Shown: one piece after another, positions 24,517 to 50,767 of the stretch | Numbering within the stretch: the first letter of the stretch is position 1 | Layout of the letters: each line of letters starts with the position of its first letter | From: a virus | IMG/VR virus record: IMGVR_UViG_3300028127_000003 | Length of the DNA stretch: 64,000 bases | Direction: 5' to 3' (one strand) | Translations under genes and position numbers: made by a program | The notes under the pieces: model-generated | Databases searched by the model: none | What the model was told of the DNA's origin: nothing | What the model saw: the letters and a program-made list of their open reading frames with translations, nothing else

Positions 24517-24816
24517 TTAGTCTCCTGCCATTATTACCGTTTTTTTAAGCTGCAATAACGTATCACATTTTTCATACTCCTCAAGTTCTTCAAAATATTC
24601 TATAATAATATCTATGAACTTGCTTCTTTGTCCTTCGCCATGAGGGATTTCTATCGTATTCTTGCCTTCGCTGAATACAACAAATCTATTAATGGTTTTA
24701 GTAAAATTTCTTGTGATAGTATAATAGCTTGATCTCATCAATGCGTCTTTGTCATCACTAAAAGATTCCTTCATTACAAAGTATATTTTTTTATATCGAG
24801 ATATTAATAATCTCAA
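24517..24816 (-). CDS. Small protein with C-terminal UVR-like motif
   Basis: IIEYFEELEEYEKCDTLLQLKK; true start may be MKESF. Confidence 0.6.
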   Translation of the reverse strand: MRLLISRYKKIYFVMKESFSDDKDALMRSSYYTITRNFTKTINRFVVFSEGKNTIEIPHGEGQRSKFIDIIIEYFEELEEYEKCDTLLQLKKTVIMAGD

Positions 24817-24880
24817 TTTATATATTTAATTCCGGTAAGGTCTAAGGTAAAATGAAGTAAAAAAATATGTTATTATATTT

Positions 24881-25078
24881 CTACTTGTCCTTGTTTTCGG
24901 CGTTAGATTTCTTTTGAAGATATATTGCCTTTTGGAACTTAAGTCTCTTTAATGCAGAGGGCTTCGTATATTGCTTTTCATCTCTAACCTTTTTCATCTG
25001 TTTGGTCTTAATGGTTTTACGCTTATACTGTTTTAAAGCTTTTTCTATATTCCCTTTATCTACATTAATTATTAACAT
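24881..25078 (-). CDS. rpsU: Ribosomal protein bS21
   Basis: MLIINVDKGNIEKALKQYKRK...YTKPSALKR...KAIY; matches Bacteroidota-type bS21, 65 aa basic. Confidence 0.88.
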   Translation of the reverse strand: MLIINVDKGNIEKALKQYKRKTIKTKQMKKVRDEKQYTKPSALKRLKFQKAIYLQKKSNAENKDK

Positions 25079-25377
25079 ATATTGCTTATGATTTTTTTAA
25101 GTTCATGGCATCTTTCATATTCTTCTTGTTCTGCGAAATATTTGATAACCGTTTCTAGTGCTGCTATTTTTTCTTCTTTAGGAGAATTATTGTTTAATGC
25201 TCCCATTTCATTTTCAATTATAGCCTTATAAATTAAGTCCATCATTATCTCTTTGGATGATGATTTCAATTTTTCAATAAACGCGATTGATTCTACGCTG
25301 TTGTTAACTTCAAATTCTGGATTATTTCTATTGGTATCTGAATTATCCCATTCGTCAAAATCTGGTAAATCATTCAT
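25072..25377 (-). CDS. Small protein with C-terminal UVR-like motif
   Basis: LETVIKYFAEQEEYERCHELKKII. Confidence 0.65.
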   Translation of the reverse strand: MNDLPDFDEWDNSDTNRNNPEFEVNNSVESIAFIEKLKSSSKEIMMDLIYKAIIENEMGALNNNSPKEEKIAALETVIKYFAEQEEYERCHELKKIISNIC

Positions 25378-26170
25378 TGTCTATTTCTTTTATTTTTTTT
25401 ATTAGTTCTATTTGTGAATCTTTAAGGGGTGGATTAAATGCATTTAACTTCACCATAAGGTTACCATAAGTATTCATACTATATATCGGGAATCCTTTAC
25501 CACTTATTCTTAATATCTTATTATTCTGTGAATTTGGAGGAACATTTACCTTTATTTTATAAAAAGGCGTATTGATTTCTATTTCAGTTCCTAGAATCAT
25601 ATCATAAAAAGAAACATTTGCATCTACATAGATGTCATTTCCGTTTAATATAATCCTATCATCATATTTTAAATTAATTATAATGATTAGATCTCCTTTG
25701 GGTGCAGATGAATTAGCAGGATGAGGTTGACCTTTTCCACTAATTTTTAACTTCATACCTTCATAAACTCCTTTAGGTATATTAACGTTTAGTTTTTTAG
25801 AACCTATGTCTACTCTCTTTTGGGTTCCATGATAAGATTCTTCTAGGGTTATTGTCATTCTAACCGTAACGTCTCTTCCTTTTGAAGAGGAACCAAACGC
25901 ATCATTGAACATATCACTGAAGGATCCTTCTCCGTTTTGAAACCAACTATGAAATGGATTGTCAGAAGACTTATATCCTAATTCAATATCATACTTTCTT
26001 TTTCTGTTCTCGTCAGATAAAACCTCGTATGCTGTAACTATTTCTTTAAAGGAAGACTCATCCCCTTCGACGGTATCGGGATGATATTGCTTTGCTAGTT
26101 TACGATAGGCCTTCTTAATCTCGGCTTGGCTTGCTGACTTGTCTATCTGCAGCAGTTCGTAGTAGTTCAT
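25370..26170 (-). CDS. dnaJ: DnaJ-class co-chaperone (J domain plus C-terminal domain, no Zn finger)
   Basis: NYYELLQI..EIKKAYRKLAKQYHPD; KGDLII; C-terminal LRISGKGFP. Confidence 0.9.
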   Translation of the reverse strand: MNYYELLQIDKSASQAEIKKAYRKLAKQYHPDTVEGDESSFKEIVTAYEVLSDENRKRKYDIELGYKSSDNPFHSWFQNGEGSFSDMFNDAFGSSSKGRDVTVRMTITLEESYHGTQKRVDIGSKKLNVNIPKGVYEGMKLKISGKGQPHPANSSAPKGDLIIIINLKYDDRIILNGNDIYVDANVSFYDMILGTEIEINTPFYKIKVNVPPNSQNNKILRISGKGFPIYSMNTYGNLMVKLNAFNPPLKDSQIELIKKIKEIDNE

Positions 26171-26327: not shown

Positions 26328-26612
26328 TTATTTATTGTCTAGAATATTTTTAAGATGTGCACATTTTTCATATTCTTCAGATTCCTGAAACCAATCTAAC
26401 ATTTGCTGTAATGTTCTGATAATCGGTTCTATTTCTATGCCGTTGTCTTGCATTGATTTAAAGTCAACTCCTTTTTCTAAGATCATATCCCAGTTATTTC
26501 TAACTAGTTTATCTTTCAGTTCGTGAAGGTTATTTTCCATATCTGCATTTTTTTGAATTTGAGCTATTTCATCGTGCTCATCGTTGTTTTGGTCTTCGAA
26601 GTCTTCAAACAT
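26328..26612 (-). CDS. Small protein with C-terminal UVR-like motif (early-type promoter)
   Basis: LQQMLDWFQESEEYEKCAHLKNIL. Confidence 0.65.
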   Translation of the reverse strand: MFEDFEDQNNDEHDEIAQIQKNADMENNLHELKDKLVRNNWDMILEKGVDFKSMQDNGIEIEPIIRTLQQMLDWFQESEEYEKCAHLKNILDNK

Positions 26613-26627
26613 ATTTCTTTATTTTTA

Positions 26628-26690
26628 ATTACTATACTAATATAAGCAAAATTTCTGAGATAAAAAAACTTTTAACTGTTTATTTTCAAA
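26628..26690 (-). promoter_or_regulatory. Class I (early-type) repeated upstream element
   Basis: ATTACTATACTAATATAAGCAAAATTTCTGAGATAAAAAAAC...CTGTTTATTTTC. Confidence 0.7.
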
Positions 26691-27444: not shown

Positions 27445-27685
27445 CTTTTTCTTGTTTTGGGTGAGTTTTTCTAATATTATAAATAGAGACTGGATATCTC
27501 ATTTGTCTTCCATAATTTCCATTAACAAATGTAAACCATCGATGGCCGTATGTTTCTGTTAATTTGTCAGAGGTACCTTCTAACTTTCCTACTTCCCATG
27601 ATCCTGCGAAATAGAAATAGTACGTTTCGCCAATAATTGGCTTCTTAACGTGAATAATCTCTAGCTTCTTTTTCTTCTTTGCCAT
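27437..27685 (-). CDS. Hypothetical protein
   Basis: Start moved to MAKKK (27685) because a class II promoter covers 27690-27717. Confidence 0.55.
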   Translation of the reverse strand: MAKKKKKLEIIHVKKPIIGETYYFYFAGSWEVGKLEGTSDKLTETYGHRWFTFVNGNYGRQMRYPVSIYNIRKTHPKQEKDV

Positions 27686-27714
27686 ATAGATTATACTCAA
27701 ATATGTGTAATTGT

Positions 27715-28182
27715 TTATATTTTCTTCTTTAATCTCATTAAGTATACTACTCTAGAGAAATGATAAAAGGAAAGAATAGGTATCTGTAACACTTCAAACA
27801 AGAATAAATTCTGTTCAGTGTTTATAAAGAGTGTTGGATATAATATTGCAGATATTATTCCAAAGATTTTAAATCTTTTATCAAAGAGCATGATCCATGT
27901 CGATGACATAAAAAATAGAATAGCAGATATATTATGTATTGTAGGGTAATTTGCAACGCTAAAGCTTGCTATGATTATTAATAAGAATGCCGGTATTTTC
28001 CATTCAATAGAACGATGAAGCCATAATCCTAATGAAACTCCTATTGTTAATAAAGGGAATAAGATTGGTTTTAATTGATGATAATCACTATAACTATCCT
28101 CTATGCCTAGGATTAATGGCAGACACACTGTATATAATATTGCGTAAATACACAGTGCAAATCGTAACCATAATCTATTCAT
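27715..28182 (-). CDS. Multi-pass membrane protein
   Basis: About five hydrophobic segments; class II motif upstream (28209-28237). Confidence 0.6.
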   Translation of the reverse strand: MNRLWLRFALCIYAILYTVCLPLILGIEDSYSDYHQLKPILFPLLTIGVSLGLWLHRSIEWKIPAFLLIIIASFSVANYPTIHNISAILFFMSSTWIMLFDKRFKIFGIISAILYPTLFINTEQNLFLFEVLQIPILSFYHFSRVVYLMRLKKKI

Positions 28183-28238
28183 ACTTGGAAGTTTATTAAC
28201 TATACTTAACTATACACTTCCATTTGGAATTGTTTCAA

Positions 28239-28463
28239 TTAAAAGTGTCCGTGTTCTTTAACACGTCTTATCATAAGATATGTGTTATATGATACGTTAA
28301 TTTCTGCATATCCTCCTGTAATTGTAGAAGGACAAGATTCTCTAGAAATCCAATAGCTAGGTGGTTCTTTAATTCTTTCTGTTATAAAGTCAAACAGTTT
28401 GTCAATGTCCATGTGATGAACCCATAAGTTCACATGCATACAAGTCATATCCGGATATGCCAT
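28239..28463 (-). CDS. Hypothetical protein
   Basis: 74-aa ORF in operon. Confidence 0.5.
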   Translation of the reverse strand: MAYPDMTCMHVNLWVHHMDIDKLFDFITERIKEPPSYWISRESCPSTITGGYAEINVSYNTYLMIRRVKEHGHF

Positions 28464-28466
28464 AAT

Positions 28467-29420
28467 TTATTCTTTTATTTCGAATCGTTCGCTGTCAAGT
28501 TCTATAGTTTTTTTATCTAAATCATTAGATAATTTTGTTAGGGCCTTGTCAGTATCTTTGTTTACTTCTCTTCCGTAAAAGTCTTTAAATATTTTACGGT
28601 ATATTTGCACAGTAGAATCATAAGGAACTCCAGGTTGAGAATTACTTTCTATAATATACAATTTTCCTTCTTGATCTTCCATTATATCAAAACATATATA
28701 TGGTAAATCTTTAAACTTATCACAGAATTTTTCTATTAGTGTTTTAAATTTTTCAGGAAGAGTTGTAATATCTCTTTTGATATATTTAAAATTCATTTCT
28801 TCTTTTCCGTCACCATCACCTGATTTTGCTTTATCATTTAATGGTTCTCTTTCCATCCAAAAGAAAGCATCTCCTTTAAAGTTAATTATTCTATGCTCTG
28901 ATTTCTTATCTACGAATTCGGAATATACGTCAAATTTAGAATGATCAGCTTTATCCCAATCTTCCTGAGATTTAAAAACCTGAATTCCAATACCTGAATG
29001 TCCTTCAGCTGGCTTTGCAATTAATGGAAAACCAATTTCTAAAGCTTCTTTCTCGTCATGGCATGTTTGTGGAATGTTTTCATCTCCATCGACTATTTTA
29101 TGAAACTCTGCCTTAGATCCAGATTGCTTAATGAATTCTGGTCTATTATATACATTTTCTTTTTTAACTAATCCTTCCTTTAAAAGGGTTTCAACTACTC
29201 CTGAATTATAGGTTAATATAGGATAGTCTGGATTAATATCTATGTCTTTATAATTGTCTTTATTGATTTGTATAAAGAAATTATCTGACGCAAATCCTTT
29301 ATAAGACCACCACCTGTGACCTGAGTCGGGATCAATTGCTAGATAAACTTTAAAAAGATCATTAGTATCTTCGTTTAGGCTTTCGTTAATAAATTGGTTG
29401 AATGATTGTATTTGCTTCAT
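28467..29420 (-). CDS. ATP-grasp ligase (RimK-like) with shared N-terminal leader
   Basis: FPLIAKPAEGHSGIGI, YSEFVD..SEHRI, FDIMED..KLYIIESNSQPG; leader MKQIQSFNQFINE. Confidence 0.8.
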   Translation of the reverse strand: MKQIQSFNQFINESLNEDTNDLFKVYLAIDPDSGHRWWSYKGFASDNFFIQINKDNYKDIDINPDYPILTYNSGVVETLLKEGLVKKENVYNRPEFIKQSGSKAEFHKIVDGDENIPQTCHDEKEALEIGFPLIAKPAEGHSGIGIQVFKSQEDWDKADHSKFDVYSEFVDKKSEHRIINFKGDAFFWMEREPLNDKAKSGDGDGKEEMNFKYIKRDITTLPEKFKTLIEKFCDKFKDLPYICFDIMEDQEGKLYIIESNSQPGVPYDSTVQIYRKIFKDFYGREVNKDTDKALTKLSNDLDKKTIELDSERFEIKE

Positions 29421-29427
29421 ATTCTAT

Positions 29428-30045
29428 TTATCCACTCATCTTACAGAAACTTACAGTAATATACCTTGTTCCTGAAAAAATAGGCTTTGCACCGTGTCTA
29501 TGTGTAATTGCACCTGGGTGTAAAGCTGCCATTCCAACTCTAGGAGGACTAATATTTGCCTTATATAATGGGAAATAAGTTCCACCTCCTGTAAAATCTT
29601 CATTCATTCTAACAACAGTTGTTAAATGGCTATTATCATGGTGAAGAGAAAGGTGCGCTTGTGTTTCTGTAGTATACTTTACAATAAATGTTTCATCTGA
29701 CATAGAATTCCACTGCTTTCCTTCTAAAGTCCAGAACCATATTCCTAATGGCCTAACAAATTCGTTAAGAACCTTTGAGTAAATTTCATTCATCCATACT
29801 TTGTCAATGAGCATGTCGGTTGTTGGATAAAATTCATGTCTATCTACTGTCCATTCTCCTTCAGTTTCACATAGTTCAATTAGATCTTTACAAAACTGTT
29901 CTTTAAATAAAGGAAATACTAAAACACTCGGAGCCGCTTCGTCAACTATGAGTTCATATTCTCCTTTTCTTAAAAGGGGATCGATGTATTTGTCACACCA
30001 TGCATCCCAATCGCTTGCATCTAAAATTTCTACGTATTTTCCCAT
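29428..30045 (-). CDS. 2OG-Fe(II) dioxygenase, procollagen lysyl hydroxylase (PLOD) catalytic-domain-like
   Basis: FPLFKEQFCKDLI...W...PTTD; FIVKY...LSLHHDNS; GGGTYF; LHPGAITHRHGA...GTRYITVSF parallel the PLOD C-terminal domain (HxD...H...R). Confidence 0.8.
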   Translation of the reverse strand: MGKYVEILDASDWDAWCDKYIDPLLRKGEYELIVDEAAPSVLVFPLFKEQFCKDLIELCETEGEWTVDRHEFYPTTDMLIDKVWMNEIYSKVLNEFVRPLGIWFWTLEGKQWNSMSDETFIVKYTTETQAHLSLHHDNSHLTTVVRMNEDFTGGGTYFPLYKANISPPRVGMAALHPGAITHRHGAKPIFSGTRYITVSFCKMSG

Positions 30046-31919
30046 TATTTTACTTTTTCTAATTTAGTTACTTTTTTTTCAACTCCTGATTTTTCAGCGT
30101 ATGTTTCGTTAGCAACTCCTTCTTCTTCTCCATATCTTGACTCTGCTGAGATAGGATAGTCAGGGCTTTCATTATATGCCCAATCTTCTATTCCTAATTC
30201 AATAAATCTAGCGTTGATTTGTTCATTATAATATTGTGCTATTGTTCTAACTCTTCTTTGAATGTCTGCTCTTGATAAATCATGAGTGTTTCTTCCACCT
30301 TGATTATTATAGAGAAATTGAATATAGCTTAGTTTAGGTATTTTACATATCTTAGAATATAGGAAGCTTCTGATCACTAATTCAAAATCATCTGCAATTG
30401 TTAGACTTCTGTTATGTCCTCCTATTTCAAAATAAGTAGATCTTCTCCATGCTCTAACGTGATTTGGAACTCCTACAATATGTCTGATTGTTTTTGGATT
30501 AATATTCTGTTGATTAGCAGGTGACAACATTCTACCTTCATACTCTTCTTCTCTATAAGAACCATATCCTAATGCAAACCCTTCTCCATATCTTTGATTT
30601 TCCCACTCTTCATTTACCTCGGCAGTATCTCCATAAAACATACCACAATCAGGATGTGCCTGTGCAGCATTATGTAAATCTTCTGCACATGTTTTAACCA
30701 ATAAGTCATCATGGTCTAATTCTGCTAGAATATATCCTTTAGCAAGAGAACAACATCTGTATTTAGATTCTCCAATACATCCTCCTGATTTTTCTCTAAA
30801 ATCATACACCTTTACTCTTGGATCTACTAACGCAATTTCTTCTGCTATCTTTAAAGTTTTACCTCCATCGGTGGAATCATTTACTAAAACCCATTCCCAG
30901 TTATTATACGTCTGATCTCTTACGGATCTATATGTGTTCCATAACTTTTCACCAGTATTATATATAGGCGTAAAGAATGAAATCATCTGATCATCTTCTA
31001 GGTTAGAAGGAGATAGAATAGAATTCATTGCTACGGAATATGCAGTGTTTCCTATATTTTCCGTGTTCTCAGAATTAAACCACCTTTTTCTAAATTGGAG
31101 AGGAAGAGAAGCTAGGTTAGGAAACTCTTTCCATGATTCTCCATTTGTAATAATTGCATCAGGATTAAACGACGTAACTGCGTTAATTACTTCACTATCG
31201 TCTTCTAAGTATTTAACGTCTAATTCATCTGCTTCATACGATAAATATTTTATAGACTTTAATTCTGGCTTAGTTTTTCCTATATAAATTATTTTAGGTA
31301 TTTTTGCACTTGGTACTTTTTCTAAATAATTGTAGTGGCATAAAACCTTGTCAATCCATACGAATGAATCACCATGTGTTTTTAATACTTCTTCTATAAA
31401 GAAACCGTCTGCTGCATAATTTGCACTAAACGAATGAGTATCAAATATGCTTCTATTAATAACCATCTGTGCAATGTCAATTTTCTGAAATGCAGTATTT
31501 TCACGACTAGCTACTCTAATTTCTTGTCCGGTAAAATCTCTACCTGCAACTAATTGAGAAACGATATGAACCTGTGCAATTGGAAGATTCTTTATACTCG
31601 CTTTAATAGTTTTGTAAAAGTCTTCGTGTATAATGTTATCATCATCTAGTAAATAGATCCAACCTGATTTGATTGTTCTAATAATATCAGAAACTTCAGG
31701 ATATAATAATCCTCCTCTTTGTCCTTTTACAAAATGTAATTTGACATTGACAGTATCTGTTAAGTTCGAGAGAACCTCTGCATCAATATCCTTTAATGCT
31801 CCTGTATCAAATACAATGTGCCAATTTACTGTTACTCCCTTAGGCGCATTTAATACTCCTTCTTTAATTGTTAAAAGGTTACTTGTTCTGGTACACCTTG
31901 TAATAATATTAATCTTCAT
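30045..31919 (-). CDS. Bi-domain glycosyltransferase (two GT-A/GT2-like domains)
   Basis: N-term WIYLLDDDN; C-term ISFFTPIYNT...WEWVLVNDST...ILAELDHDD...ADDFEL. Confidence 0.82.
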   Translation of the reverse strand: MKINIITRCTRTSNLLTIKEGVLNAPKGVTVNWHIVFDTGALKDIDAEVLSNLTDTVNVKLHFVKGQRGGLLYPEVSDIIRTIKSGWIYLLDDDNIIHEDFYKTIKASIKNLPIAQVHIVSQLVAGRDFTGQEIRVASRENTAFQKIDIAQMVINRSIFDTHSFSANYAADGFFIEEVLKTHGDSFVWIDKVLCHYNYLEKVPSAKIPKIIYIGKTKPELKSIKYLSYEADELDVKYLEDDSEVINAVTSFNPDAIITNGESWKEFPNLASLPLQFRKRWFNSENTENIGNTAYSVAMNSILSPSNLEDDQMISFFTPIYNTGEKLWNTYRSVRDQTYNNWEWVLVNDSTDGGKTLKIAEEIALVDPRVKVYDFREKSGGCIGESKYRCCSLAKGYILAELDHDDLLVKTCAEDLHNAAQAHPDCGMFYGDTAEVNEEWENQRYGEGFALGYGSYREEEYEGRMLSPANQQNINPKTIRHIVGVPNHVRAWRRSTYFEIGGHNRSLTIADDFELVIRSFLYSKICKIPKLSYIQFLYNNQGGRNTHDLSRADIQRRVRTIAQYYNEQINARFIELGIEDWAYNESPDYPISAESRYGEEEGVANETYAEKSGVEKKVTKLEKVK

Positions 31920-31933
31920 ATTTATATTTGTTT

Positions 31934-32866
31934 TTATACGTCAAAAAAGAACATGTGAAAAAATCTAGCATTGTCAATTGCATCTCCAAAATACTGAGTC
32001 GCAGCGTGGATATTTTTAGCATTAAACAAGACTAATCTATTATACACATTTCCTACTTCATCTATTTTTTCAAAATTAGATCCATCGTAAAAATTCATTT
32101 CATTACTATTACCCTTGAATGCATCTATGTATGCTTGGGTTTTTCTTTTATCGTCATCGAATGTATAATCACCCGTGACTTTACTTCTATAGAACGCAGT
32201 TCCAGATGTAGGTGGAGCGTCAGGTGTTAAATATACCATTGCTGCATAAGTTTGATTATCCACGTGATAAACAATCTGTTGATCTGCTGTACAAAATTGA
32301 AATATTCCGTTAGCATACCTGTCGTGATTCCAATTGAATATTGGTTTTCCTATAATTTCTTCTAGTTTTTCTTTAGTTCCATCTAAGATAAATCTTTCAT
32401 TTGCTCTTTGGCCCTTGTGATAATCGGAAGGTGTAAATTCTAAATGGTTCATTGCCCATTCTCTTACAAGGTCAGGATCATTATAAAAATTATCTACTAC
32501 TATAACATCCTTTGATGTATTTGCAAATCCTGAATGATACGATAACCAGTGTCCGATTGGACCTATTGCAGTTTCTCCAATACTAGTATGGATGACTAGT
32601 GTTTTTAGTTTTTTATCAAAAGGAACCTCAATAGTAAATGACATATTCTGATTAGTAAGCTGATTTGAATATACTTCCATTACGTCTTGCCTATCACCTA
32701 AAAATTGAACTTTAAGAGGTTCATTTGACATTGAAAAGCCTAAAGCTTCTCCGCCTATTAATCCAACCCATCCATTAAGAGTATATGTGTCTGTATTCTT
32801 AGTTACGCTTTCCACATAGAATTTTACATTCTTGTTAAACGTATCATGTTTGATTTTATTATCCAT
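31934..32866 (-). CDS. 2OG-Fe(II) oxygenase with N-terminal extra domain
   Basis: IVVDNFY, YHVD (HxD), YAAMVYLTP..SGTAFY, YNRLVLF..IHAA, distal R. Confidence 0.7.
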   Translation of the reverse strand: MDNKIKHDTFNKNVKFYVESVTKNTDTYTLNGWVGLIGGEALGFSMSNEPLKVQFLGDRQDVMEVYSNQLTNQNMSFTIEVPFDKKLKTLVIHTSIGETAIGPIGHWLSYHSGFANTSKDVIVVDNFYNDPDLVREWAMNHLEFTPSDYHKGQRANERFILDGTKEKLEEIIGKPIFNWNHDRYANGIFQFCTADQQIVYHVDNQTYAAMVYLTPDAPPTSGTAFYRSKVTGDYTFDDDKRKTQAYIDAFKGNSNEMNFYDGSNFEKIDEVGNVYNRLVLFNAKNIHAATQYFGDAIDNARFFHMFFFDV

Positions 32867-32960
32867 CGATTGTGTTCTATAATATTAGTTATACTTAGAT
32901 ATTTTAAATTGTTTACTAAGTGTAATAAGATAATAAGTTATTACAATCTATATATCACAT

Positions 32961-32990
32961 AAAAAAAGGGTCCTCTTTCGAGGACCCTTT
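32961..32990 (-). terminator. Rho-independent terminator after collagen gene
   Basis: AAAGGGTCCTC-TTTC-GAGGACCCTTT perfect hairpin, GAAA loop on minus strand, U-tract. Confidence 0.85.
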
Positions 32991-41569: not shown

Positions 41570-43342
41570 TTATAGTTTTATACCCATAACTTGAACTTTG
41601 TCCTTAGCATCAACGTCATAAGCTAATAAGCCTGTGAAATCGATATCAGTTCCACCTGTACATCTGAAGTCAACGAATACACCGTTTACATAAACAGTTA
41701 AATCATCGTTAGTTCCGAATGCAACTGGCTGAGGTAAAGTAAATAAGTTAGTTGCAGTAAATACTGCAGTTTGTCTTAGGTACGTACCACCTTCTTCAAC
41801 AGCTACTTCTAATGAATCGATAGATGCGTTTATAACATTTACCTCTCCGTTAGTTGTTGCTATCTCAGCAGCTAATTCAGCAGATAAAGCAGATTCAACA
41901 GAACCAGCTCTTGTGATTTCAGCAGCTAAGTCACCTTCAACACCTAATACTCTAGTGTCGATTGAAGTGATGTCACCAGCTAATTCACCGTCAACAACCT
42001 CTAAAGAATTAACTGAAGCAGTTAATAATAAGTTGTCAGCGTCGTTAGCGTCGATCTGTGCTTTTAACTTAGCGTCTTCACCAGCTCTATCTTCTTTTTC
42101 TTGCTCGATAGCAATCGCTAGATTGTTATCAACAGCTTCTAAAGAATCGATAGATCTGTCTTGTGCGATTTGCTCAGCGTTAGTTGAAGCGATTTCAGCA
42201 GCTAAAGCAACTTCTAAAGAATCAACAGATGCGTCAGTTCTTACTACGAATGCAGCAAAAGCATCATCATTTTCAGTATCAACAGAGTTGATTAAAGAAA
42301 CGATTTCAGCGAATGAATCTTTGTCAGCAGTTGAAGCTTCTAAGATTGCATCGATTCTACCTTTTTCTGTAGCGATGTCAGATGCTAATTCACCATCAAC
42401 AACCTCTAAAGAGTTTACAGATAATGTTAAGTTAGCGTTGTCTAAATCGTTAGCGTCGATTCTAGAACCTAATGCTAAATCAGCAGCAGCTCTTAATCTT
42501 GCTTCCTCTTCGATAGAAGATGATAAACCAGCGTCAGCAGCTTCTAAAGAATCAATAGATGCGTTTTGAACAGCTTGCTCAGCAGCAGTTTCAGCGATCT
42601 CAGCAGATAATTCTGCAGATATCTTACCTTCCATTGCAGTTGCTCTGTCGATTTCAGCTTGTAAGTCACCTTCAACACCAGATACTCTAGTGTCTAATGA
42701 AGTGATGTTACCAGCAAAACCATTGTCAACAACTTCTAATGAATCGATAGATGCGTTAACATTGATAAAATCAGCGTTAGTTGCAGCGATCTCTGCGTTT
42801 AAAGCAGCTTCAATAGCATTTTCTCTACCAGTTGCTCTTTCGATTTCAGAAGCTAAGTCACCTTCAACACCTAATACTCTAGTGTCTAATGAAGTGATGT
42901 CACCTTCTAAACCAAGAATGTCAGAGTCATTGCTTGTGATTTGTCTCTGAAGATCAGCATCAACTAATTCTAATGAATCGATTGACTTATCTGTTCTTAG
43001 TACGAATGAAGCGAATGCATTGTCATTTTCAGTATCAACTGCGTTGATTAAAGAAACGATTTCAGCGAATGAATCTTTGTCTGCTTCTGCAGAATCTAAG
43101 ATTGCATCTACTCTTTCTTTTTCTGTTACGATCTCAGCCGATAAAGCAGTATCAACAGCTTCTAAAGAAGATACTTCACCTGCGATGAAAGTCTCTAAAG
43201 AGTTTACTGATGCGTCTACTGTATCAAATCCTTGTTTGATGTCCCATACGTTTGCAATTTTTACATTGTCAGACGATACAACATTTGCCCATGTGATTGA
43301 ACTTAGAAAGTCAGAAATTTGTTTTGAACGAATTTGTGCCAT
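41570..43342 (-). CDS. Long coiled-coil fibre/whisker-like protein with modular repeats
   Basis: Ala/Asp/Glu-rich heptads; repeated S(I/V)(D/N)SLE motif; duplicated DAIL...ADKDSFAEIVSLIN blocks; small beta C-terminal domain. Confidence 0.7.
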   Translation of the reverse strand: MAQIRSKQISDFLSSITWANVVSSDNVKIANVWDIKQGFDTVDASVNSLETFIAGEVSSLEAVDTALSAEIVTEKERVDAILDSAEADKDSFAEIVSLINAVDTENDNAFASFVLRTDKSIDSLELVDADLQRQITSNDSDILGLEGDITSLDTRVLGVEGDLASEIERATGRENAIEAALNAEIAATNADFINVNASIDSLEVVDNGFAGNITSLDTRVSGVEGDLQAEIDRATAMEGKISAELSAEIAETAAEQAVQNASIDSLEAADAGLSSSIEEEARLRAAADLALGSRIDANDLDNANLTLSVNSLEVVDGELASDIATEKGRIDAILEASTADKDSFAEIVSLINSVDTENDDAFAAFVVRTDASVDSLEVALAAEIASTNAEQIAQDRSIDSLEAVDNNLAIAIEQEKEDRAGEDAKLKAQIDANDADNLLLTASVNSLEVVDGELAGDITSIDTRVLGVEGDLAAEITRAGSVESALSAELAAEIATTNGEVNVINASIDSLEVAVEEGGTYLRQTAVFTATNLFTLPQPVAFGTNDDLTVYVNGVFVDFRCTGGTDIDFTGLLAYDVDAKDKVQVMGIKL

Positions 43343-43512
43343 ATTATTTATATAATTATTTTTTGCACACCCTACATTATTGTAGGATTGGATTATATAT
43401 TAATACGTTTATTCGTGGGGGGTAAAAAAGTATATAATATCTTAATAAAATTAATTAAATTTTACGTATTTACGTTTTTACGTTTTTCTTATAATACTAA
43501 GATAATATATTA

Positions 43513-44739
43513 TTAAGAATAAGATTCGTAGAATAAAGAGACTCTATCTTCATCAGTGAGCTCATATCCCGCGACTATCGAGTTAAAGATTAATTCATCA
43601 CCTACTCGGATATCTTGGAATGTTCTAGCAGTAGTTCCTCCATCTGATGAAAAGTAACCATCTAGGTTTTTAGTTCCGTCTCCTAATGAAATAGAAATAC
43701 CATTAATTTCAACGTCAATGTATTGGCCATCTTGCGGTGTAACCGATAATATGATTCCAGTTCTAGATACATTTCCAGATGTATTATTTGGAATTAATTC
43801 TTTATCTAGTACTGTGCTAGATTTCTTACCTAGATCAGTTGAAGATAATGCTGAACCATATACATCTAGTTTAAATGAAACTTCGTCCGTAACTAGCCAA
43901 TTATTTTTATATACACCAGGTCCTTCAGTCGACATTTCGTGAGATACTATAACCTGTATTGCATCATCGATGTCGTCAATACATTCTCCAGAAGAACAGT
44001 TGATTCTGTACCAGTCTACTACATTAAAAATAGAATATTGAGCGGTATCGCTTCTGTTTATTAATGTAATCGTACCTTCAATTCCATCTTTATCTATTCT
44101 GTTAATTAAAAAGTTTTCTAAAACACTTACTCTAATTCCATCGTAGTCACTATTCATAAATGTCATTTTAGTTACTAGACCAGGGGATCCTGAATCTAAA
44201 GATAAGCTTCCTTGTCCAATAGGAACTGAACCATCGATATGTTGAACTTTATAATATGGATCCATGGACGAAGATACACCTATTCCCGAACTTCTTTGAG
44301 TAGATTTATACAGAGAAGGATCGTGTCTGTTTTCATTAAATAAAATAGATCCAATTTCCATGTTAGGTAAAGAATAAACCTTAGTAGGTTCTATTCTAGA
44401 ATTAGTCACTACTATGTTTACGTATATTTTTCCAGCAGGAAGATTTAATGTTTGTAGTTTTGATAATTCAAATTGAAAAACAGCCTGTGTAGTTGGATCG
44501 TCATTTACTAATATAAGATCTCCTGAAACTCCGTATACTCTAGGCATTGAATATTGTGCGATTAAATCAGACGATTCATCTAATAAATTCATAGTAAATG
44601 TAGAATATAGTGATGTATTAAGATTTCCACCTACCCTATCTCTATATAGTTTTACTGTGTAGACTTGTGAGTCTCCCTGTATAACATCTATTGTGTTATC
44701 AATATATCCAATAATATCTTCTTGCGTAACCTGTGGCAT
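43513..44739 (-). CDS. Putative structural/appendage protein
   Basis: C-terminal domain shared with 38594-39370; late-type motif upstream. Confidence 0.6.
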   Translation of the reverse strand: MPQVTQEDIIGYIDNTIDVIQGDSQVYTVKLYRDRVGGNLNTSLYSTFTMNLLDESSDLIAQYSMPRVYGVSGDLILVNDDPTTQAVFQFELSKLQTLNLPAGKIYVNIVVTNSRIEPTKVYSLPNMEIGSILFNENRHDPSLYKSTQRSSGIGVSSSMDPYYKVQHIDGSVPIGQGSLSLDSGSPGLVTKMTFMNSDYDGIRVSVLENFLINRIDKDGIEGTITLINRSDTAQYSIFNVVDWYRINCSSGECIDDIDDAIQVIVSHEMSTEGPGVYKNNWLVTDEVSFKLDVYGSALSSTDLGKKSSTVLDKELIPNNTSGNVSRTGIILSVTPQDGQYIDVEINGISISLGDGTKNLDGYFSSDGGTTARTFQDIRVGDELIFNSIVAGYELTDEDRVSLFYESYS

Positions 44740-44777
44740 TTTTAAACTATTTTGTTTTTATAAACTATATATCTTGA

Positions 44778-45464
44778 TTAATTTGCTCTTAAATGATTGT
44801 AAAGCTTAAATTTTAATACTGGCAATACCCTTTCATTCATATCGAATTCTGAATTAACACTGCATCTAAAAAACCTATAATCAGAACTTTCATCTTGTAC
44901 CTTTGTAATAAAAAGAGAAATTGCTCTTATATCATACACTGTTTCTCCTTCATATTTTAGATTTAAATCTTTCCAGTTTTCTGTCAATAAAGAAGGAACT
45001 TTAAAAGAATATATTTGCATGATATCTTCAGGAGTTTTCACTAAAGCATATCCTAGTTTTTTAGTTCTTTTAATATCTGGAATTTCTGTAATGTTAATAG
45101 CCTTCTCGACTAATCTAAATACTACCCTTACATTTTTATGTATATCTTCTAATATATCTATAGCTTTATCACAAAGCTTATACATGTCTTCTATATGTTT
45201 ATCTCCTTCTGGATATTCATATTCTAAAGACATTGTGTCAAGGTTGATTCCCTTGAGAACTCTTAAATTAACGTCTATCTCCTCCTTCCTGTGCTTAATT
45301 TTATACATTTCAAGTAGATGATCTTCTACTTCATCGAGTATGGATATTAAGCCTCCATCTTTGAGAATCTTATTAAAAGTGTTCTCAGCTGCTAAGAGTT
45401 TATAGTATTTTAATTCAAAATCATGAGGCTCGATAGTGAGCCAATTTGGATCTAATACATTCAT
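44778..45464 (-). CDS. Hypothetical protein resembling a Bacteroidota conserved family
   Basis: W...DFELKYYKLLA N-terminus and LPV.K C-terminus (recalled similarity). Confidence 0.5.
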   Translation of the reverse strand: MNVLDPNWLTIEPHDFELKYYKLLAAENTFNKILKDGGLISILDEVEDHLLEMYKIKHRKEEIDVNLRVLKGINLDTMSLEYEYPEGDKHIEDMYKLCDKAIDILEDIHKNVRVVFRLVEKAINITEIPDIKRTKKLGYALVKTPEDIMQIYSFKVPSLLTENWKDLNLKYEGETVYDIRAISLFITKVQDESSDYRFFRCSVNSEFDMNERVLPVLKFKLYNHLRAN

Positions 45465-45496
45465 GGAATATTTATCTAAAATTCCACGCGTGTATT

Positions 45497-45808
45497 TTAT
45501 TTTTTAGAAGATGTCTTCTTTTTAGAAGCTTTTTTAGGTGGAGTTTGTTCGGTTGGAATAACTGCTAATCCCCATTGTAGAATAAACCACTGTGCTTCTT
45601 TCTCAGCTTGTTTGATGTCTAATCCTAATGTGTTAACAACAGTTTCTGTAATATGCTTTATAAACTTTTGCTCTTTTTCTTGAGTAGTTTTATATTCCAT
45701 ATACCATTGTGGATTGTCCTTAACATCATCATAGGTTACCCCATGATCTTTTAATTGATGATTGATTAGCTCAATAAATAATTCTCTTTCAATGTCTCTG
45801 TTTCTCAT
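45497..45808 (-). CDS. Hypothetical protein
   Basis: 103-aa ORF. Confidence 0.55.
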   Translation of the reverse strand: MRNRDIERELFIELINHQLKDHGVTYDDVKDNPQWYMEYKTTQEKEQKFIKHITETVVNTLGLDIKQAEKEAQWFILQWGLAVIPTEQTPPKKASKKKTSSKK

Positions 45809-46002
45809 AATGATAGTATTGTAATTAGTGCATCCATATCCTGTAACCTAATCCATTCGTCATAGGTTAAAGAGATCATGGTGAAGTCTTTTGCCGGTGT
45901 ATTTAAAAATTCAAACTCTTTCGTCGTCTCCGAAAAAGGATCACTTAATATCTTATTAAGAGAGTCTAAATCTTGCGTTTTTACGTAAATATGAATTTTC
46001 AT
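45805..46002 (-). CDS. Hypothetical protein
   Basis: 65-aa ORF. Confidence 0.5.
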   Translation of the reverse strand: MKIHIYVKTQDLDSLNKILSDPFSETTKEFEFLNTPAKDFTMISLTYDEWIRLQDMDALITILSL

Positions 46003-46014
46003 ATAATTTATATA

Positions 46015-46683
46015 TTAAGATTTCCCGATGATTTCGTCAATAATACCATAAGCTTTAGCTTCTTTTGCATTTAACCAAAAGTCTCTAGTCGCATCTTTCA
46101 TTACTTCGTCAGCTGGTTTTCCACAATATTCTCCTAAAAGATTAAATAATTCTTTATTTACTTTTTGCCATTCTTTCCAATCTATTTCAGCATCTTGAAT
46201 ATTACCATTAAATCCACCAGAGGATTGGTGTAACATTGTAGTAGAATGTCTAAGTGAAGATCTTTTTCCCTTAGTTCCTGCTCCTAATAAAACAGAACCC
46301 ATTGATGCAGCCATACCAGTATTTACTGTTTTAATATCTGACTTAATGTAATCCATAACATCAACCATTGAAAGTCCACTTTTAACACTTCCACCTGGAG
46401 AATCAATATGCATCGTAATATCTGTTCCTCCAACTGAGTCTAAAAACATCAACTGTGCTTGAACAATCGTAGACATATTATCATTAACAGGTCCTGCAAC
46501 CCATAATAACCTATCCATCATTAATCTAGAAAAGATATCCATCTGAGTAGCTCTTAACTCTCTTTCTTCTAAGATATATGGAGTTAACGAGTTTTCAATC
46601 TGCTTCTCATAGTAATTTAATTTAGATGATGAAACATTATGATCACTCATCGCATACTTTTCAAATTCTTTTCCGTAATTCAT
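46015..46683 (-). CDS. clpP: ATP-dependent Clp protease proteolytic subunit
   Basis: DIFSRLMMDR, IDSPGG, GMAASMG (Ser), MLHQ (His), RDFWL (Asp). Confidence 0.95.
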   Translation of the reverse strand: MNYGKEFEKYAMSDHNVSSSKLNYYEKQIENSLTPYILEERELRATQMDIFSRLMMDRLLWVAGPVNDNMSTIVQAQLMFLDSVGGTDITMHIDSPGGSVKSGLSMVDVMDYIKSDIKTVNTGMAASMGSVLLGAGTKGKRSSLRHSTTMLHQSSGGFNGNIQDAEIDWKEWQKVNKELFNLLGEYCGKPADEVMKDATRDFWLNAKEAKAYGIIDEIIGKS

Positions 46684-46711: not shown

Positions 46712-47551
46712 TTATATTAAGTTATCCTTAAATGTTTCAACATAAGAATAAGTATTATCAGATTCGGTATCATCTCCTTGTGTTATTAGATTATGATTAG
46801 TCATATACACTTGCATGTTTTTGAATTGATAATTAATCCATACGTCAACTGGGCCGACAATAGGCAAACCTTCTAATAATTTCTTAGCTCCTTCGTATGT
46901 TAATACATAACCAGATAACCACCATACTCCATTATATAACCGTGATAGATTTTGGGAATGAGGATCCCATGTAAATCCAAATTGATTTGGCAAACTAGAA
47001 AGATACAATAAATCCCAATCATTAGGAAGTTCTTTTTCAAATATGCTTTCTATTTTATCTTGAAATTTATGACAAAATTCAAAGTCATCTTCCATTATGA
47101 GGGTGACTGGTGTTTTATTCTCTACAATTTCTTTCCAAATTCTATAGTGTGAAAATGCGATTCCAGTTTCAGCAGAAGAACATAATATCTTATTATTTCT
47201 TTTTAATTTATTTTTCATTCCGGGAGAAGGATCTATTTCCCAGTGAAATGAAAATGGATATTTGTTAATGTGTATTTTTTTAGAAAACCACTTTATTCTT
47301 TTTCCTTCTATTGCGTCAAAGAATCTTAAATGATCTAGTAATGTTTTACGTCCCTTTAGTTTTTGGGAAGATGCTCTCTTCTCTGCTATTTTTAATCTAT
47401 CTTTCCTGTATGCTAGATGAATAACTACGGTGTCGTCAATATACTTAGTCCATTCAATTCTTTTCTGTCTCTCGAATACTCGTAAGAGTCGAGAGAACCA
47501 TTTTGATGTGGTTCTAGCGACTCTATTAAATCCTTCAAGCCCGTACTTCAT
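46712..47551 (-). CDS. Glycosyltransferase family 25 (COLGALT/LgtB-like)
   Basis: IHLAYRKDR, FFDAIEG, SHYRIWKEIV..LIMEDD, DWDLLYL, GYVLTYEGAKKLL..PVDVWI. Confidence 0.82.
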   Translation of the reverse strand: MKYGLEGFNRVARTTSKWFSRLLRVFERQKRIEWTKYIDDTVVIHLAYRKDRLKIAEKRASSQKLKGRKTLLDHLRFFDAIEGKRIKWFSKKIHINKYPFSFHWEIDPSPGMKNKLKRNNKILCSSAETGIAFSHYRIWKEIVENKTPVTLIMEDDFEFCHKFQDKIESIFEKELPNDWDLLYLSSLPNQFGFTWDPHSQNLSRLYNGVWWLSGYVLTYEGAKKLLEGLPIVGPVDVWINYQFKNMQVYMTNHNLITQGDDTESDNTYSYVETFKDNLI

Positions 47552-47559: not shown

Positions 47560-47862
47560 TTATATTCTATTTAGCAAGTCTGTGATGTGTTTACATTTTT
47601 CGTAATTTTCTCTTTCTTTAAAAAATTCTAGAGATTTTTGCAAAGACTTATTATATCTATCTTCATCCAAGAGGGATTCATACTCATTTCCTTGTTCATC
47701 TATCAATTTACATAGTATATTTCCTTTCATTGATATTCCATCAATAGTATCTTCTATGTGTTGTACGATATTTAAATGAAAACCGACAATGTCATCTATG
47801 CCATCTTCCAAGGAACCCAGTTCCATCGTCCTAGTGTTAATCCTGAATTTCGGGTATTCCAT
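47560..47862 (-). CDS. Small protein with C-terminal UVR-like motif
   Basis: LQKSLEFFKERENYEKCKHITDLL. Confidence 0.65.
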   Translation of the reverse strand: MEYPKFRINTRTMELGSLEDGIDDIVGFHLNIVQHIEDTIDGISMKGNILCKLIDEQGNEYESLLDEDRYNKSLQKSLEFFKERENYEKCKHITDLLNRI

Positions 47863-48736
47863 CCTTTCCTATGAGTTCTTCTTCATTAATAATACCTGCG
47901 AATGATTCTAGAATTTGTCTGAATTCTTTCTGTGTAGGTTTTTCAGTTTCTATAGTCTCGTTTACTTTTTCTATAAAGGATAATCCATGATCTGTTAATA
48001 GCATCTTACCCGCTTCAATGGTAAAGAATGGTTGATCTATTATCATTGCGTATTGTGTAGAATCTTCTATAATTTCTTGTTGAATTTTAGCTGCTAATTC
48101 GAAGTGTCTTTCGTAGAAATGAGAGTTATCTGCACAATGGTAATATACTCCTAGGTCTAGTTCAGGGTATGTGTCTTTTAACCATAGATGAACATGTTGG
48201 TGAACGAATGCAAAGAAAGGTGCGTCAAACGTTAATCCATAGAACACATCATTAGATCTCATTTGAACTTTCATATTCAATTGATTATTTCTAATAAAGA
48301 AATTTAAGTACATAGTACATACAAAATCTTTATTACCTTCAAACTGAAATTTGGGTTGATTAAGAAATGCTATCGCCTGTCTCGTGTTTTGATCCGCTTT
48401 TAATGAATCTACAACCCATTCTAATTGTTCATTAAATAATAGTGAACCGTAGTTTGAGTTAATTTCATTTGAATTAGGATTAGTTAATGTAGACCAGAAT
48501 CCTGAAAATTGACCTATATAATCTACATCGTTATCTTTTCGTAGATACCATGTTAATTCACCTGCAAAGTATTTCCAGTTGAATTTTCTATTTTCAAAAT
48601 TAGCAATAGGCATGTAAGGATCTATAGGTAAAGTTGTAAGGGCTAATTCCTTTACTTTCATATCACGTGGTTGTGATACACTTCCTATATCGTCTATGTT
48701 TGTAATTGTTTTTGAGAATTGACTTGAAAAATTCAT
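47837..48736 (-). CDS. Thymidylate-synthase-superfamily enzyme, T4 gp42 dCMP hydroxymethylase-like
   Basis: NSNYG, TRQA, DFVCT, MRSNDVFYGLTFD (Asp at specificity site), HFYERHF. Confidence 0.75.
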   Translation of the reverse strand: MNFSSQFSKTITNIDDIGSVSQPRDMKVKELALTTLPIDPYMPIANFENRKFNWKYFAGELTWYLRKDNDVDYIGQFSGFWSTLTNPNSNEINSNYGSLLFNEQLEWVVDSLKADQNTRQAIAFLNQPKFQFEGNKDFVCTMYLNFFIRNNQLNMKVQMRSNDVFYGLTFDAPFFAFVHQHVHLWLKDTYPELDLGVYYHCADNSHFYERHFELAAKIQQEIIEDSTQYAMIIDQPFFTIEAGKMLLTDHGLSFIEKVNETIETEKPTQKEFRQILESFAGIINEEELIGKDGIPEIQD

Positions 48737-48763
48737 TTAATAAGTTATTAGTTTATTATTATA

Positions 48764-50767
48764 CTACTTTTTAATAGAAAGTTTATCTTCTTTCTTCGTA
48801 TGATTGATTGTGTACACCTCGTCTCCTCTAACTATTTCTCCTTTAATAATAGCATCCGCTAAAAGATCTTCAATGTAAGTTTGAACCGCTCTCTTCAAGG
48901 GTCTTGCACCATAATCAGGATCATATCCTTTTTCTGCTAAGAATTCCTTTGCTTGCTTAGTAACTTTAATATTATATTTCTGATCAAACATTCTAATTAC
49001 CAGGTGTCTAACTTCAATATCAACAATTTGAAGAATATCTTCATGCTTTAATTGGTCGAATAATACTACATCATCTAATCTATTTAAAAATTCCGGTGCA
49101 AACTTATTTTTAAGTTCCTTTGCGATGATAGCTTCAGTGTGTGCTTTTCTTCCAGCGATTGAAGATTTCTTAGTTTCAAATCCAATACCCGTTCCGAACT
49201 CACTTACTTTTTTAGCACCGACATTAGATGTCATAATGATAATCGTATTCGTAAAGTCAACTGTTCTTCCTAATGAATCTGTTAATCTTCCTTCGTCTAA
49301 TACTTGTAGTAAAGTATTGAATACATCAGGGTGTGCTTTTTCAATTTCATCGAAAAGTACAACCGAATAAGGTCTTCTTCTAACCTGTTCTGTTAATTGA
49401 CCGCCATCTTCATGACCAACATATCCAGGAGGAGAACCAATTAATCTTGATACTGCAAACTTTTCCATGTATTCGCTCATATCAATTCTAATTAAATGAT
49501 CTTCTGATCCAAAGTAATAATTAGTAATCGCCTTTACTGTTTCTGTTTTACCAACACCAGTTGGTCCTAAGAACATAAAAGAACCTATAGGTTTTTTAGC
49601 AGATGATACACCAGTTCTTGATCTTTTAATTACCTTAGAGAGTGCGTCTACTGCTTGATCTTGTCCAATAATCATTTTCTTAAGCTCTGTTTCCATTGCT
49701 AGGATTATTTTACTTTCATCACCTGTCATTCTTGTTACAGGAATTCCTGTTGCTTGTGAAATAGTTTCAGCAATATCTTCGGCTGTTACTTTTTTCTTTT
49801 TATCTCTTAGTGACTTTTCCCATGCAGATATTTTCTTTTCAATTAAATTCTTAGATTGAATTTCTTTATCTCTAAAGTGAGCAGCTTTTTCATAGTCTTG
49901 TTCTTCAACTGCCTTTAATTTGTCAAGTGTTAAAGCTTCTACCTCAGTCTCCGCTCTTTTAATATGCACAGGTACTTTGATTTCGCTTAAGTGAACTTTT
50001 GCACCTGATTCATCCATTAAATCAATAGCCTTATCAGGAAGTTCTCTACTTGTAATATACCTTGTAGAAAGAGAGACACATGCTTCTAGTGCATCATCAG
50101 TATATTCAACTGCATGATAATCTTCATAGTTTCCTTTAATTCTTTGTAAGATTTCGATAGTATCTTCCTCGCTAGGTGGATCTATAAATACTTCTTGGAA
50201 TCTTCTAGTAAGTGCACCATCATCTTCAATATTTTCTCTATATTCATCTAAAGTAGTTGCACCAATACATTGTACTTGTCCTCTCGCTAATGCAGGTTTT
50301 AATATATTTGAAGCGTCTAAAGATCCACTAACACCACCTGCTCCAACGATTGTATGTAATTCATCGATAAAAACAATGATGTCTTTGTTATTCTTTAATT
50401 CCTCAACGATAAGTTTCATTCTTTCTTCAAACTCACCTCTATATTTTGTACCTGCTACGATATTAGAAATATTGATAGAAACTATTCTTTTCTTTAAAAG
50501 AGTTCTTGCTACTTTCTTATCTACGATTCTTTGTGCAATCGCCTCTACTAACGCAGTCTTACCTACACCAGGATCTCCTAAAATAATAGGATTATTCTTC
50601 TTTCTTCTCGATAGGATTTGGCAAATTCTATACACTTCTTTTTCCCTTCCGATAATAGGATCTAGATTTCCTTTTGCAGCTTCAGCTGTTAGGTCTTCTC
50701 CATACTCATCAACGTAAGGTGTTTTTCTTTTACCGCCTTTTCCTGGATTTTCAAATTGTTCTGCCAT
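48764..50767 (-). CDS. clpC: ClpC-like AAA+ unfoldase lacking the N-terminal Clp-N domain
   Basis: DPIIGREKE, GDPGVGKT, FIDELH, UVR segment EEQDYEKAAHFRD, GPTGVGKT, FDEIEKAH, GIGF ClpP-docking loop, GARPLKR. Confidence 0.9.
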   Translation of the reverse strand: MAEQFENPGKGGKRKTPYVDEYGEDLTAEAAKGNLDPIIGREKEVYRICQILSRRKKNNPIILGDPGVGKTALVEAIAQRIVDKKVARTLLKKRIVSINISNIVAGTKYRGEFEERMKLIVEELKNNKDIIVFIDELHTIVGAGGVSGSLDASNILKPALARGQVQCIGATTLDEYRENIEDDGALTRRFQEVFIDPPSEEDTIEILQRIKGNYEDYHAVEYTDDALEACVSLSTRYITSRELPDKAIDLMDESGAKVHLSEIKVPVHIKRAETEVEALTLDKLKAVEEQDYEKAAHFRDKEIQSKNLIEKKISAWEKSLRDKKKKVTAEDIAETISQATGIPVTRMTGDESKIILAMETELKKMIIGQDQAVDALSKVIKRSRTGVSSAKKPIGSFMFLGPTGVGKTETVKAITNYYFGSEDHLIRIDMSEYMEKFAVSRLIGSPPGYVGHEDGGQLTEQVRRRPYSVVLFDEIEKAHPDVFNTLLQVLDEGRLTDSLGRTVDFTNTIIIMTSNVGAKKVSEFGTGIGFETKKSSIAGRKAHTEAIIAKELKNKFAPEFLNRLDDVVLFDQLKHEDILQIVDIEVRHLVIRMFDQKYNIKVTKQAKEFLAEKGYDPDYGARPLKRAVQTYIEDLLADAIIKGEIVRGDEVYTINHTKKEDKLSIKK

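Follow-up and report, generated by a model that had tools for sequence, protein, structure and literature searches.

Small proteins with a UVR-like hairpin in a viral contig that encodes an N-domain-less ClpC

The clpC-clpP block and four small hairpin proteins

A stretch of 64,000 nucleotides of the IMG/VR virus record IMGVR_UViG_3300028127_000003, hereafter referred to as the window, was analysed with regard to a phage-encoded ClpC-ClpP protease and four small proteins that end in the same predicted hairpin. Nearly every gene up to ~55 kb of the window is located on the minus strand, and this applies to all genes of the window described below. The genes of main concern encode ClpC (667 amino acids (aa), 48764-50767), the ClpP peptidase (222 aa, 46015-46683) and the hairpin proteins F47560 (100 aa, 47560-47862), F24517 (85 aa, 24517-24774), F25072 (101 aa, 25072-25377) and F26328 (94 aa, 26328-26612), the latter two being taken from the listing of open reading frames (ORFs) and the motif alignment. 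A preceding reading of the sequence alone had described four small minus-strand ORFs at these places with the common C-terminal motif [YWF]FxExE[EN]YE[KR]CxxL, and this description was borne out. A six-frame scan with the pattern E[EDNQ][YFW]E[KR][CA]xx[LIMVF] returned exactly four matches in 64 kb, every one of them C-terminal, and no fifth copy was detected in the window with a hidden Markov model (HMM) of the motif. The four proteins can be aligned only over their last ~30 residues, within which F, E, E, Y, E and C are invariant. The start of F24517 is most likely the ATG at 24774, resulting in 85 aa as in the aligned orthologues, and not the TTG at 24816.

The sequence-only reading had also claimed a ClpC with both AAA modules, a UVR coiled coil and an IGF-type loop that lacks the N-terminal domain, and Pfam searches together with the alignment to ClpC of S. 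aureus agree with it on each point. The Pfam domains AAA, AAA_lid_9, UVR, AAA_2 and ClpB_D2-small were found in the phage ClpC, with no Pfam match to Clp_N. The UVR match (residues 274-306, E 1.5e-5) comprises the canonical motif EEQDYEKAAHFRDKE and is situated inside the M-domain, whose length is that of the ClpC type and not that of the longer ClpB type. The alignment to S. aureus ClpC (E 5.6e-224) starts from residue 12 of the phage protein and covers residues 156-805 of the bacterial enzyme; therefore, the phage protein begins in the linker that follows the N-domain. In the same alignment the Walker A/B and related motifs are retained (GDPGVGKT, FIDELH, GPTGVGKT and LFDEIEKA), the docking loop GTGIGFETK (GIGF) occupies the position of the ClpP-docking (IGF) loop of S. 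aureus ClpC, and an aromatic Y is found in the tip of the M-domain at the position of S. aureus F436. The stop-to-stop frame of clpC leaves only ~30 residues ahead of the linker, and as judged from the sequence the absence of the N-domain is natural. The ORF upstream of clpC was considered as a detached Clp_N domain and rejected, as it encodes an RNaseH-like protein (PF04308). A complete ClpP with a Ser-His-Asp triad had likewise been claimed and was confirmed (Pfam CLP_protease 7e-57); the triad is located in conserved blocks, the GMAASMG, MLHQ and TRD blocks matching the catalytic ones in an alignment with ClpP proteins of solved structure, and the protein carries an N-terminal extension of ~26 residues.

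F47560 is embedded between these two protease genes. A gene for a thymidylate-synthase-family enzyme (Thy-like, 47837-48736, Pfam Thymidylat_synt 2.5e-16) is located between ClpC and F47560, with 26 bases common to its end and the start of F47560, and a family-25 glycosyltransferase (GT25, 46712-47551, Pfam Glyco_transf_25 2.2e-18) is encoded between F47560 and ClpP. The order ClpC, Thy-like, F47560, ClpP was found in 39 of 39 loci that possess a true F47560 orthologue, and the ClpC-F47560 block is kept although the identity of ClpC decreases to 67% and that of F47560 to 32%. The GT25 gene is an insertion present only in L253-L257, the closest relatives of the window; elsewhere ClpP directly follows F47560, and the start of clpP usually lies a few tens of bases after the F47560 stop codon. 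Only F47560 among the four hairpin proteins is tied to clpC-clpP. In most of the 39 loci the conserved block is opened upstream of ClpC by genes for a LOG/SLOG-family protein (51284-51949, Pfam PF03641 1e-33) and the YkuK-type RNaseH-like protein (50816-51271, Pfam PF04308 3.9e-25).

Structures of two of the hairpin proteins were modelled with AlphaFold2, for F47560 with family alignments as input. The model of F47560 (predicted local distance difference test (pLDDT) 91.6, predicted template modelling score (pTM) 0.83) consists of a compact alpha/beta body and a hairpin of residues 67-99 (bases 47563-47664), in which the helices 67-83 and 87-99 (pLDDT >90) are joined by a three-residue turn. 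F24517 combines an N-terminal helix carrying an RNxF motif with a C-terminal hairpin; its overall pLDDT is 73.3, while the hairpin helices 49-63 and 67-82 score ~90. Strongly acidic and aromatic-rich N-terminal tails, e.g. MFEDFEDQNNDEHDE, are present in F25072, F26328 and many of their relatives; these tails are probably disordered and are reminiscent of partner-binding acidic tips in other proteins. None of the four proteins has a Pfam or PHROG family, and when the PDB sequences were searched at E<=10 with the F47560 profile, only chance rows came up. With Foldseek against the PDB the best match had an E-value of 1.5, and the wide VIA-align search ended at a best Z of 5.5 with generic three-helix or TPR-like chains; no fold was assigned. 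No known ClpC adaptor was among the Foldseek and VIA-align matches listed for the body domain, a result that does not by itself exclude an adaptor. Sequence-family matches to MecA, McsA/McsB, CLPF, NblA or SPO1 Gp53 were not found for the four proteins in Pfam and PHROG, nor in the PDB with the F47560 profile.

Kinship of the hairpin to the UVR motif and spread of the family

The resemblance of the shared tail to the UVR helix of ClpC, as claimed from the sequence alone, was upheld weakly to moderately for the fold and the register of the hairpin and for the profile comparison, while the support from Pfam stayed below threshold. A helix-turn-helix of about 35 residues was seen in the AlphaFold2 models of both F47560 and F24517. 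An alignment of the broad hairpin profile to the ClpC M-domain by hhalign (P 0.0048 over 35 columns) placed YEKC on YEKAA in the expected register. The UVR motif PF02151 was the top match on the hairpin of three of ten tested members of the wider family, P0151, P0226 and P0227 (E 8e-4, 7e-3 and 0.08), with scores of 19.5, 16.5 and 13.1 bits, all under the gathering score of 21.5 bits. A protein-language-model (ESM) look-up led twice to a viral cluster of 63 aa as the nearest named one, 32% of whose members carry a UVR motif, and is taken as a lead only. With weak to moderate confidence, the tail may thus be read from its sequence as a diverged UVR-type helix-turn-helix hairpin whose first small residue is the invariant Cys. 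The phage hairpin shares with PF02151, as present in the C-terminus of UvrB, in UvrC, in the ClpC M-domain and in McsA-type proteins, the helix-turn-helix of ~35 residues and the register E-[FY]-E-x-small-small-x-[LI]. In many members of the wider phage family R-D follows as in the UVR motif, these relatives reading EEYEKCAxIRD, and some have PF02151 as best match. Unlike the UVR motif, the phage hairpin has an invariant Cys as first small residue, R-D has been lost in the four window copies (EEYEKC or ENYEKC), which remain below the Pfam threshold, and the motif is located C-terminally in small phage-only proteins.

The distribution of the hairpin was determined with a profile of 42 positions built from 68 diverse copies. 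Among 1.84 billion proteins, 1292 cluster representatives were found at E<=1e-3, corresponding to about 1300 family clusters at 50% identity. Nearly all are 40-150 residues long, with a C-terminal hairpin and many unrelated bodies, and E-x-Y-E-x-C is strictly invariant over hundreds of these. The module is not confined to small proteins, since EEYEKC is also carried by frames of ~290-345 codons (L229:5946-6824, L251:1758-2768, L244:4909-5943 and L241:1085-2080), in which the hairpin lies ~30-115 residues from the frame start and is followed by a conserved body of ~250 residues. Each hairpin protein of the window forms a separate conserved orthologue group in marine metagenomes, and relatives of P0151 occur in other viral contigs outside the window clade.

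Co-occurrence with ClpC was assessed in IMG/VR scans, the counts being given without correction for shared ancestry. Seven of seven hairpin-bearing phage genomes outside the clade, drawn from the contigs with P0151 relatives (G012-G016, G018 and G021; 97-100% complete by CheckV estimates, three with terminal repeats), encode one or two hairpin proteins each and no ClpC. The ClpC search is sound, because the same query recovered ClpC in G003, G004 and G006. Within the clade, ClpC and three hairpin ORFs were found in the complete genome G003 (256 kb); of the hairpin genes, G002 (170 kb, 70% complete) contains only the three that belong to the DnaJ cluster. No counterpart of ClpP, GT25, F47560, the Thy-like enzyme, ClpC, the RNaseH-like protein or LOG was found in the whole 170 kb of G002; the window genes at 45.5-46.0 kb correspond to 71.6-72.1 kb of G002, and synteny breaks exactly at the clpC-clpP block. 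The clade contigs G007-G011 without ClpC are uninformative, being 30-46% complete with the expected ClpC position off the contig. A check for co-occurrence of the motif family with N-domain-less ClpC had been proposed in the sequence-only reading, and when it was run the hairpins turned out to be common in phages without ClpC, as the seven genomes of at least 97% completeness show. The hairpin is thus quite probably a general module of a large phage family and not a set of ClpC adaptors.

In other viral lineages, the frames of 24 out of 67 more distant ClpC loci are closed 38-75 residues ahead of the conserved core, and no hairpin ORF was found within 10 kb of the more distant viral ClpC genes L012-L080. 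ClpC without the N-domain recurs at L013, L014, L017, L023, L025-L028, L031-L033, L038, L046, L052, L057, L063, L070, L074, L079 and L080, which are IMG/VR contigs including some of 230-480 kb. ClpP is absent within 10 kb at most of these 20 loci; at L033 it follows directly downstream. When the more distant ClpC loci were searched with an HMM of the M-domain hairpin of ClpC, divergent ORFs of ~140-160 codons were found not more than about 200 bases from an N-domain-less ClpC at four loci (L060:9354-9779, L064:9370-9813, L067:9392-9868 and L073:9354-9779, all on the minus strand). Their products carry a conserved N-terminal region of TYTSPDG type and two UVR motifs of canonical form (Pfam E between 8e-20 and 4e-14), and differ from F47560 in both body and position. 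Relatives of these double-UVR proteins in other contigs again adjoin ClpC wherever the flank is present (L298-L300), while L301 lies at the edge of its contig. Due to the double-UVR neighbour in this second lineage, a UVR hairpin as partner of N-domain-less ClpC is still plausible for F47560 alone. A viral thymidylate synthase (L045:5486-6829, minus strand, Pfam 1e-92), encoded ~3 kb from a ClpC gene, contains an insertion of ~70 residues with the UVR-like stretch QDYEVAAKERD and is an echo of the Thy-like/hairpin pair of the window.

Gene neighbourhoods of the remaining copies

The gene pairings differ for each copy, so that the four hairpin genes are distributed over three neighbourhoods, namely clpC-clpP, dnaJ and phoH. 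The presence of a DnaJ, which the sequence-only reading had mentioned, was verified: a DnaJ-type co-chaperone (25370-26170) with a J domain including HPD (Pfam DnaJ 6.4e-23) and DnaJ_C (1e-35), without the zinc-finger domain, is encoded between two of the copies. F26328 is located upstream of orf69 and dnaJ, and the end of dnaJ and the start of F25072 share 8 bases; hairpin ORFs on both flanks of dnaJ were found in 71 of 76 clade loci. Between F25072 and F24517 a phage-encoded ribosomal protein S21 is found (24881-25078, Pfam Ribosomal_S21 1.2e-9), with an S21 match in 63 of 80 related loci. A PhoH-like ATPase (23774-24502, Pfam PhoH 5.7e-62) is encoded 14 bases downstream of F24517, and phoH is the next gene downstream of F24517 in 79 of 80 clade loci. 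F24517 aligns to the P0151 family over nearly its whole length (hhalign, 97% probability, E 3e-11, 67 columns), and in the distant P0151 group the hairpin gene lies 0-1.5 kb upstream of phoH in 16 loci, the phoH concerned being ~33% identical to that of the window. The phoH gene is a marker gene of marine phages, and the constant pairing with one branch of the hairpin family provides a concrete candidate partner for PhoH.

A promoter-like element of ~39 bases, TTTATCTCAGAAATTTTGCTTATATTAGTATAGTAATTA, was recognised by consensus resemblance at 26626-26664 (minus strand), 27 bases before the start of F26328. Three near-identical copies, TTTATCTCA..TTTTGCTTATATTAGTATAGTAAT, are present in the window (26626-26664, 20752-20790 and 20316-20354, minus strand), located 27-31 bases ahead of the start codons of F26328 and of the frames 20513-20737 and 19885-20298. 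Their sequence makes it probable that they are promoters belonging to a single class. A weaker box, [AT]AGTATA, precedes ClpC, the Thy-like gene and others by 23-30 bases.

The hairpin genes of the DnaJ cluster lie 6-8 kb from ClpC in G004 and ~22 kb from it in the window (27500-46000 compared with G004:C1:95556-105795). The ~22-kb stretch of the window, which holds a high-GC gene for 1852 aa (33015-38573) and glycosyltransferase-type genes, looks like an inserted island. The cultured-phage records of INPHARED yielded neither relatives of the hairpin proteins nor relatives of the region; distant blastn matches comprised ClpC-like stretches only. In tblastn searches of the same records F24517 and P0121 had no match and P0151 had one chance-level match, where the acidic motif may be masked by the low-complexity filter of BLAST.

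Candidate role of F47560 and comparison with known systems

The N-domain of ClpC is the normal site for adaptors and for phospho-arginine, and the M-domain of cellular ClpC keeps the enzyme inactive by locking it in a head-to-head resting state. Because its N-domain is absent, the phage ClpC lacks this normal site; with its M-domain intact, it would still need the M-domain contacts to be released. On balance, we lean towards the reading that the cysteine-bearing, UVR-like hairpin of ~35 residues is a general docking or pairing module and that only F47560 works with the protease, via release of the M-domain. F47560 is the only credible protease partner among the four, since the hairpin family occurs in phages without ClpC and F47560 lies inside the clpC-clpP operon. 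Produced from the same operon, F47560 would set its UVR-like hairpin on the tip of the ClpC M-domain, the docking would release the M-domain lock and switch on ClpC-ClpP, and a client bound to the alpha/beta body might be delivered as well. The release step itself, i.e. that the F47560 hairpin frees the M-domain contacts of ClpC, is put forward as a tentative proposal. Doubtful, when taken as a whole, is the wider generalisation that stand-alone UVR-type hairpin proteins have arisen at least twice, as F47560 and as the double-UVR protein, as trans-acting switches of N-domain-less phage ClpC through M-domain docking, which would break the resting state and take over the regulatory role of the absent N-domain, and that phages use the EEYEKC hairpin as a shared docking tag for partners of chaperone and ATPase machines (ClpC, DnaJ and PhoH).

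Several observations weigh against a protease role of F47560 and against the UVR kinship on which it builds. The adjacency of F47560 and ClpC is known from one phage clade only and may be inherited gene order, and the Thy-like gene, which overlaps F47560, is an equally constant neighbour of it. At 20 of 24 other N-domain-less ClpC loci no UVR-type ORF was found within 10 kb, and at L033 nothing lies between the directly adjacent genes of N-domain-less ClpC and ClpP. As for the hairpin, 38 members of the four families of the window were compared with PF02151 and not one matched even at E<=10, the narrow hairpin profile reached only P 0.05 against the ClpC M-domain, and the invariant Cys is not accounted for by a simple UVR-type packing role. 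Furthermore, the hairpin of F47560 is modelled within a compact domain (pTM 0.83), so that its docking face may be buried.

Among the rival explanations, the one that had been derived from the sequence alone saw all four hairpin proteins as substitutes for the Clp-N domain, namely as interchangeable adaptors made at different times that supply the phage ClpC-ClpP with different substrates. It was suggested by the one hairpin common to all four, which is like the tip of the ClpC M-domain, by a phage ClpC without the adaptor-binding N-domain and by the promoter-like element that F26328 has of its own, and the distance of only 6-8 kb between the DnaJ-cluster trio and ClpC in G004 would fit as well. 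This claim did not survive the comparison of genomes: all seven near-complete hairpin phages outside the clade lack ClpC, G002 keeps the DnaJ-S21-PhoH trio without the clpC-clpP block, and the constant neighbours of the trio are dnaJ and phoH, not clpC. Such a set of adaptors is thus considered highly improbable. The presence of the family in phages without ClpC could be explained by a partner in the host. The hairpins would then be takeover factors that do not depend on the phage ClpC and target UVR proteins of the host (the M-domains of ClpC or ClpB or, in nucleotide excision repair, the contact between UvrB and UvrC). Phage SPO1 provides a precedent with Gp53, a small protein that acts on the ClpC of the host (PMC6873191), and UVR-UVR pairing is known from UvrB/UvrC (summarised in PMC8889267). 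As host targeting leaves the constant pairing with the phage genes dnaJ, phoH and clpC-clpP unexplained, we regard it as improbable.

The hairpin might instead be only an element of self-association or stability without a common partner, in which case F47560 would serve the Thy-like enzyme, F24517 PhoH, and F25072 together with F26328 DnaJ. The UVR domain of UvrB is generally described as a motif of protein-protein contact (PMC7966870), F47560 overlaps the Thy-like gene, the viral ThyA of L045 bears an inserted UVR-like segment, and the pairing of F24517 with phoH recurs in a distant phage group, all of which are in line with this possibility. Nevertheless, the strict invariance of E-x-Y-E-x-C over hundreds of unrelated bodies suggests one conserved contact more than a role in stability, and in another lineage a double-UVR protein stands beside an N-domain-less ClpC, so that self-association without a common partner appears rather unlikely.

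Release of the M-domain without an N-domain is a current question in the control of AAA+ proteases. If F47560 does switch on the N-domain-less ClpC, it would represent a compact, natural two-part answer to M-domain derepression without an N-domain, and would illustrate how a phage operates a protease of its own. Apart from this, the hairpin with its invariant E-x-Y-E-x-C defines a large, unnamed and undescribed family of phage proteins.

The closest counterpart of the phage ClpC is an engineered one. In S. aureus ClpC, the N-domain and the M-domain jointly maintain the inactive resting state; removal of the N-domain raises the ATPase activity without proteolysis, while removal of the N-domain combined with a mutation of the M-domain tip results in an enzyme highly active on a pore-recognised substrate (PMC12583610). 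The engineered delta-N ClpC (Jenne et al., EMBO J 2025, PMC12583610) has the same architecture as the phage protein, with an M-domain and an aromatic residue in its tip (Y here, F436 there). Unlike this laboratory construct, which is proteolytically silent unless its M-domain contacts are broken as well, the phage ClpC is natural, recurrent in viral contigs and known from genes alone.

With regard to UVR proteins as ClpC partners, the sequence-only reading had treated UVR coiled coils as established ClpC-adaptor contacts, e.g. in McsA-type proteins. In the literature consulted, a contact of the UVR domain of plant CLPF to the UVR of CLPC is proposed (PMC7966870), whereas the McsA example is not supported there. 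UVR proteins are enriched on trapped CLPC1, and in UvrB/UvrC the pairing takes place between UVR motifs (PMC8889267, the latter in summary); generally, the UVR domain of UvrB is described as a motif for protein-protein contacts (PMC7966870). Plant CLPF and the CLPC1-trapped proteins EXE1/2 and UVR2-4 are, like the phage proteins, stand-alone UVR proteins that associate with a UVR-bearing ClpC. In contrast to the phage, plant CLPC1 keeps its N-domain, and CLPF also makes use of ClpS1 and of its YccV domain; the bodies of the phage hairpin proteins have no sequence relation to the plant UVR proteins, and the link to the phage ClpC rests on gene order only.

Known activators of ClpC offer a further comparison. 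MecA and McsB activate ClpC, deliver substrates and touch the M-domain (linker) region (PMC6873191). Their role is the same as the one proposed for F47560; unlike F47560 with its N-domain-less ClpC, they need the N-domain, and no Pfam, PDB-sequence or fold match connects them to the four window proteins. Gp53 of phage SPO1, which can mimic an adaptor, binds ClpC of B. subtilis, stimulates its ATPase and redirects ClpCP (PMC6873191). It is likewise a small phage protein; unlike the situation proposed here, it acts on the host ClpC mainly via the N-domain, a domain missing from the phage ClpC, with no UVR motif reported in Gp53, whereas the phage of the window supplies its own ClpC and ClpP.

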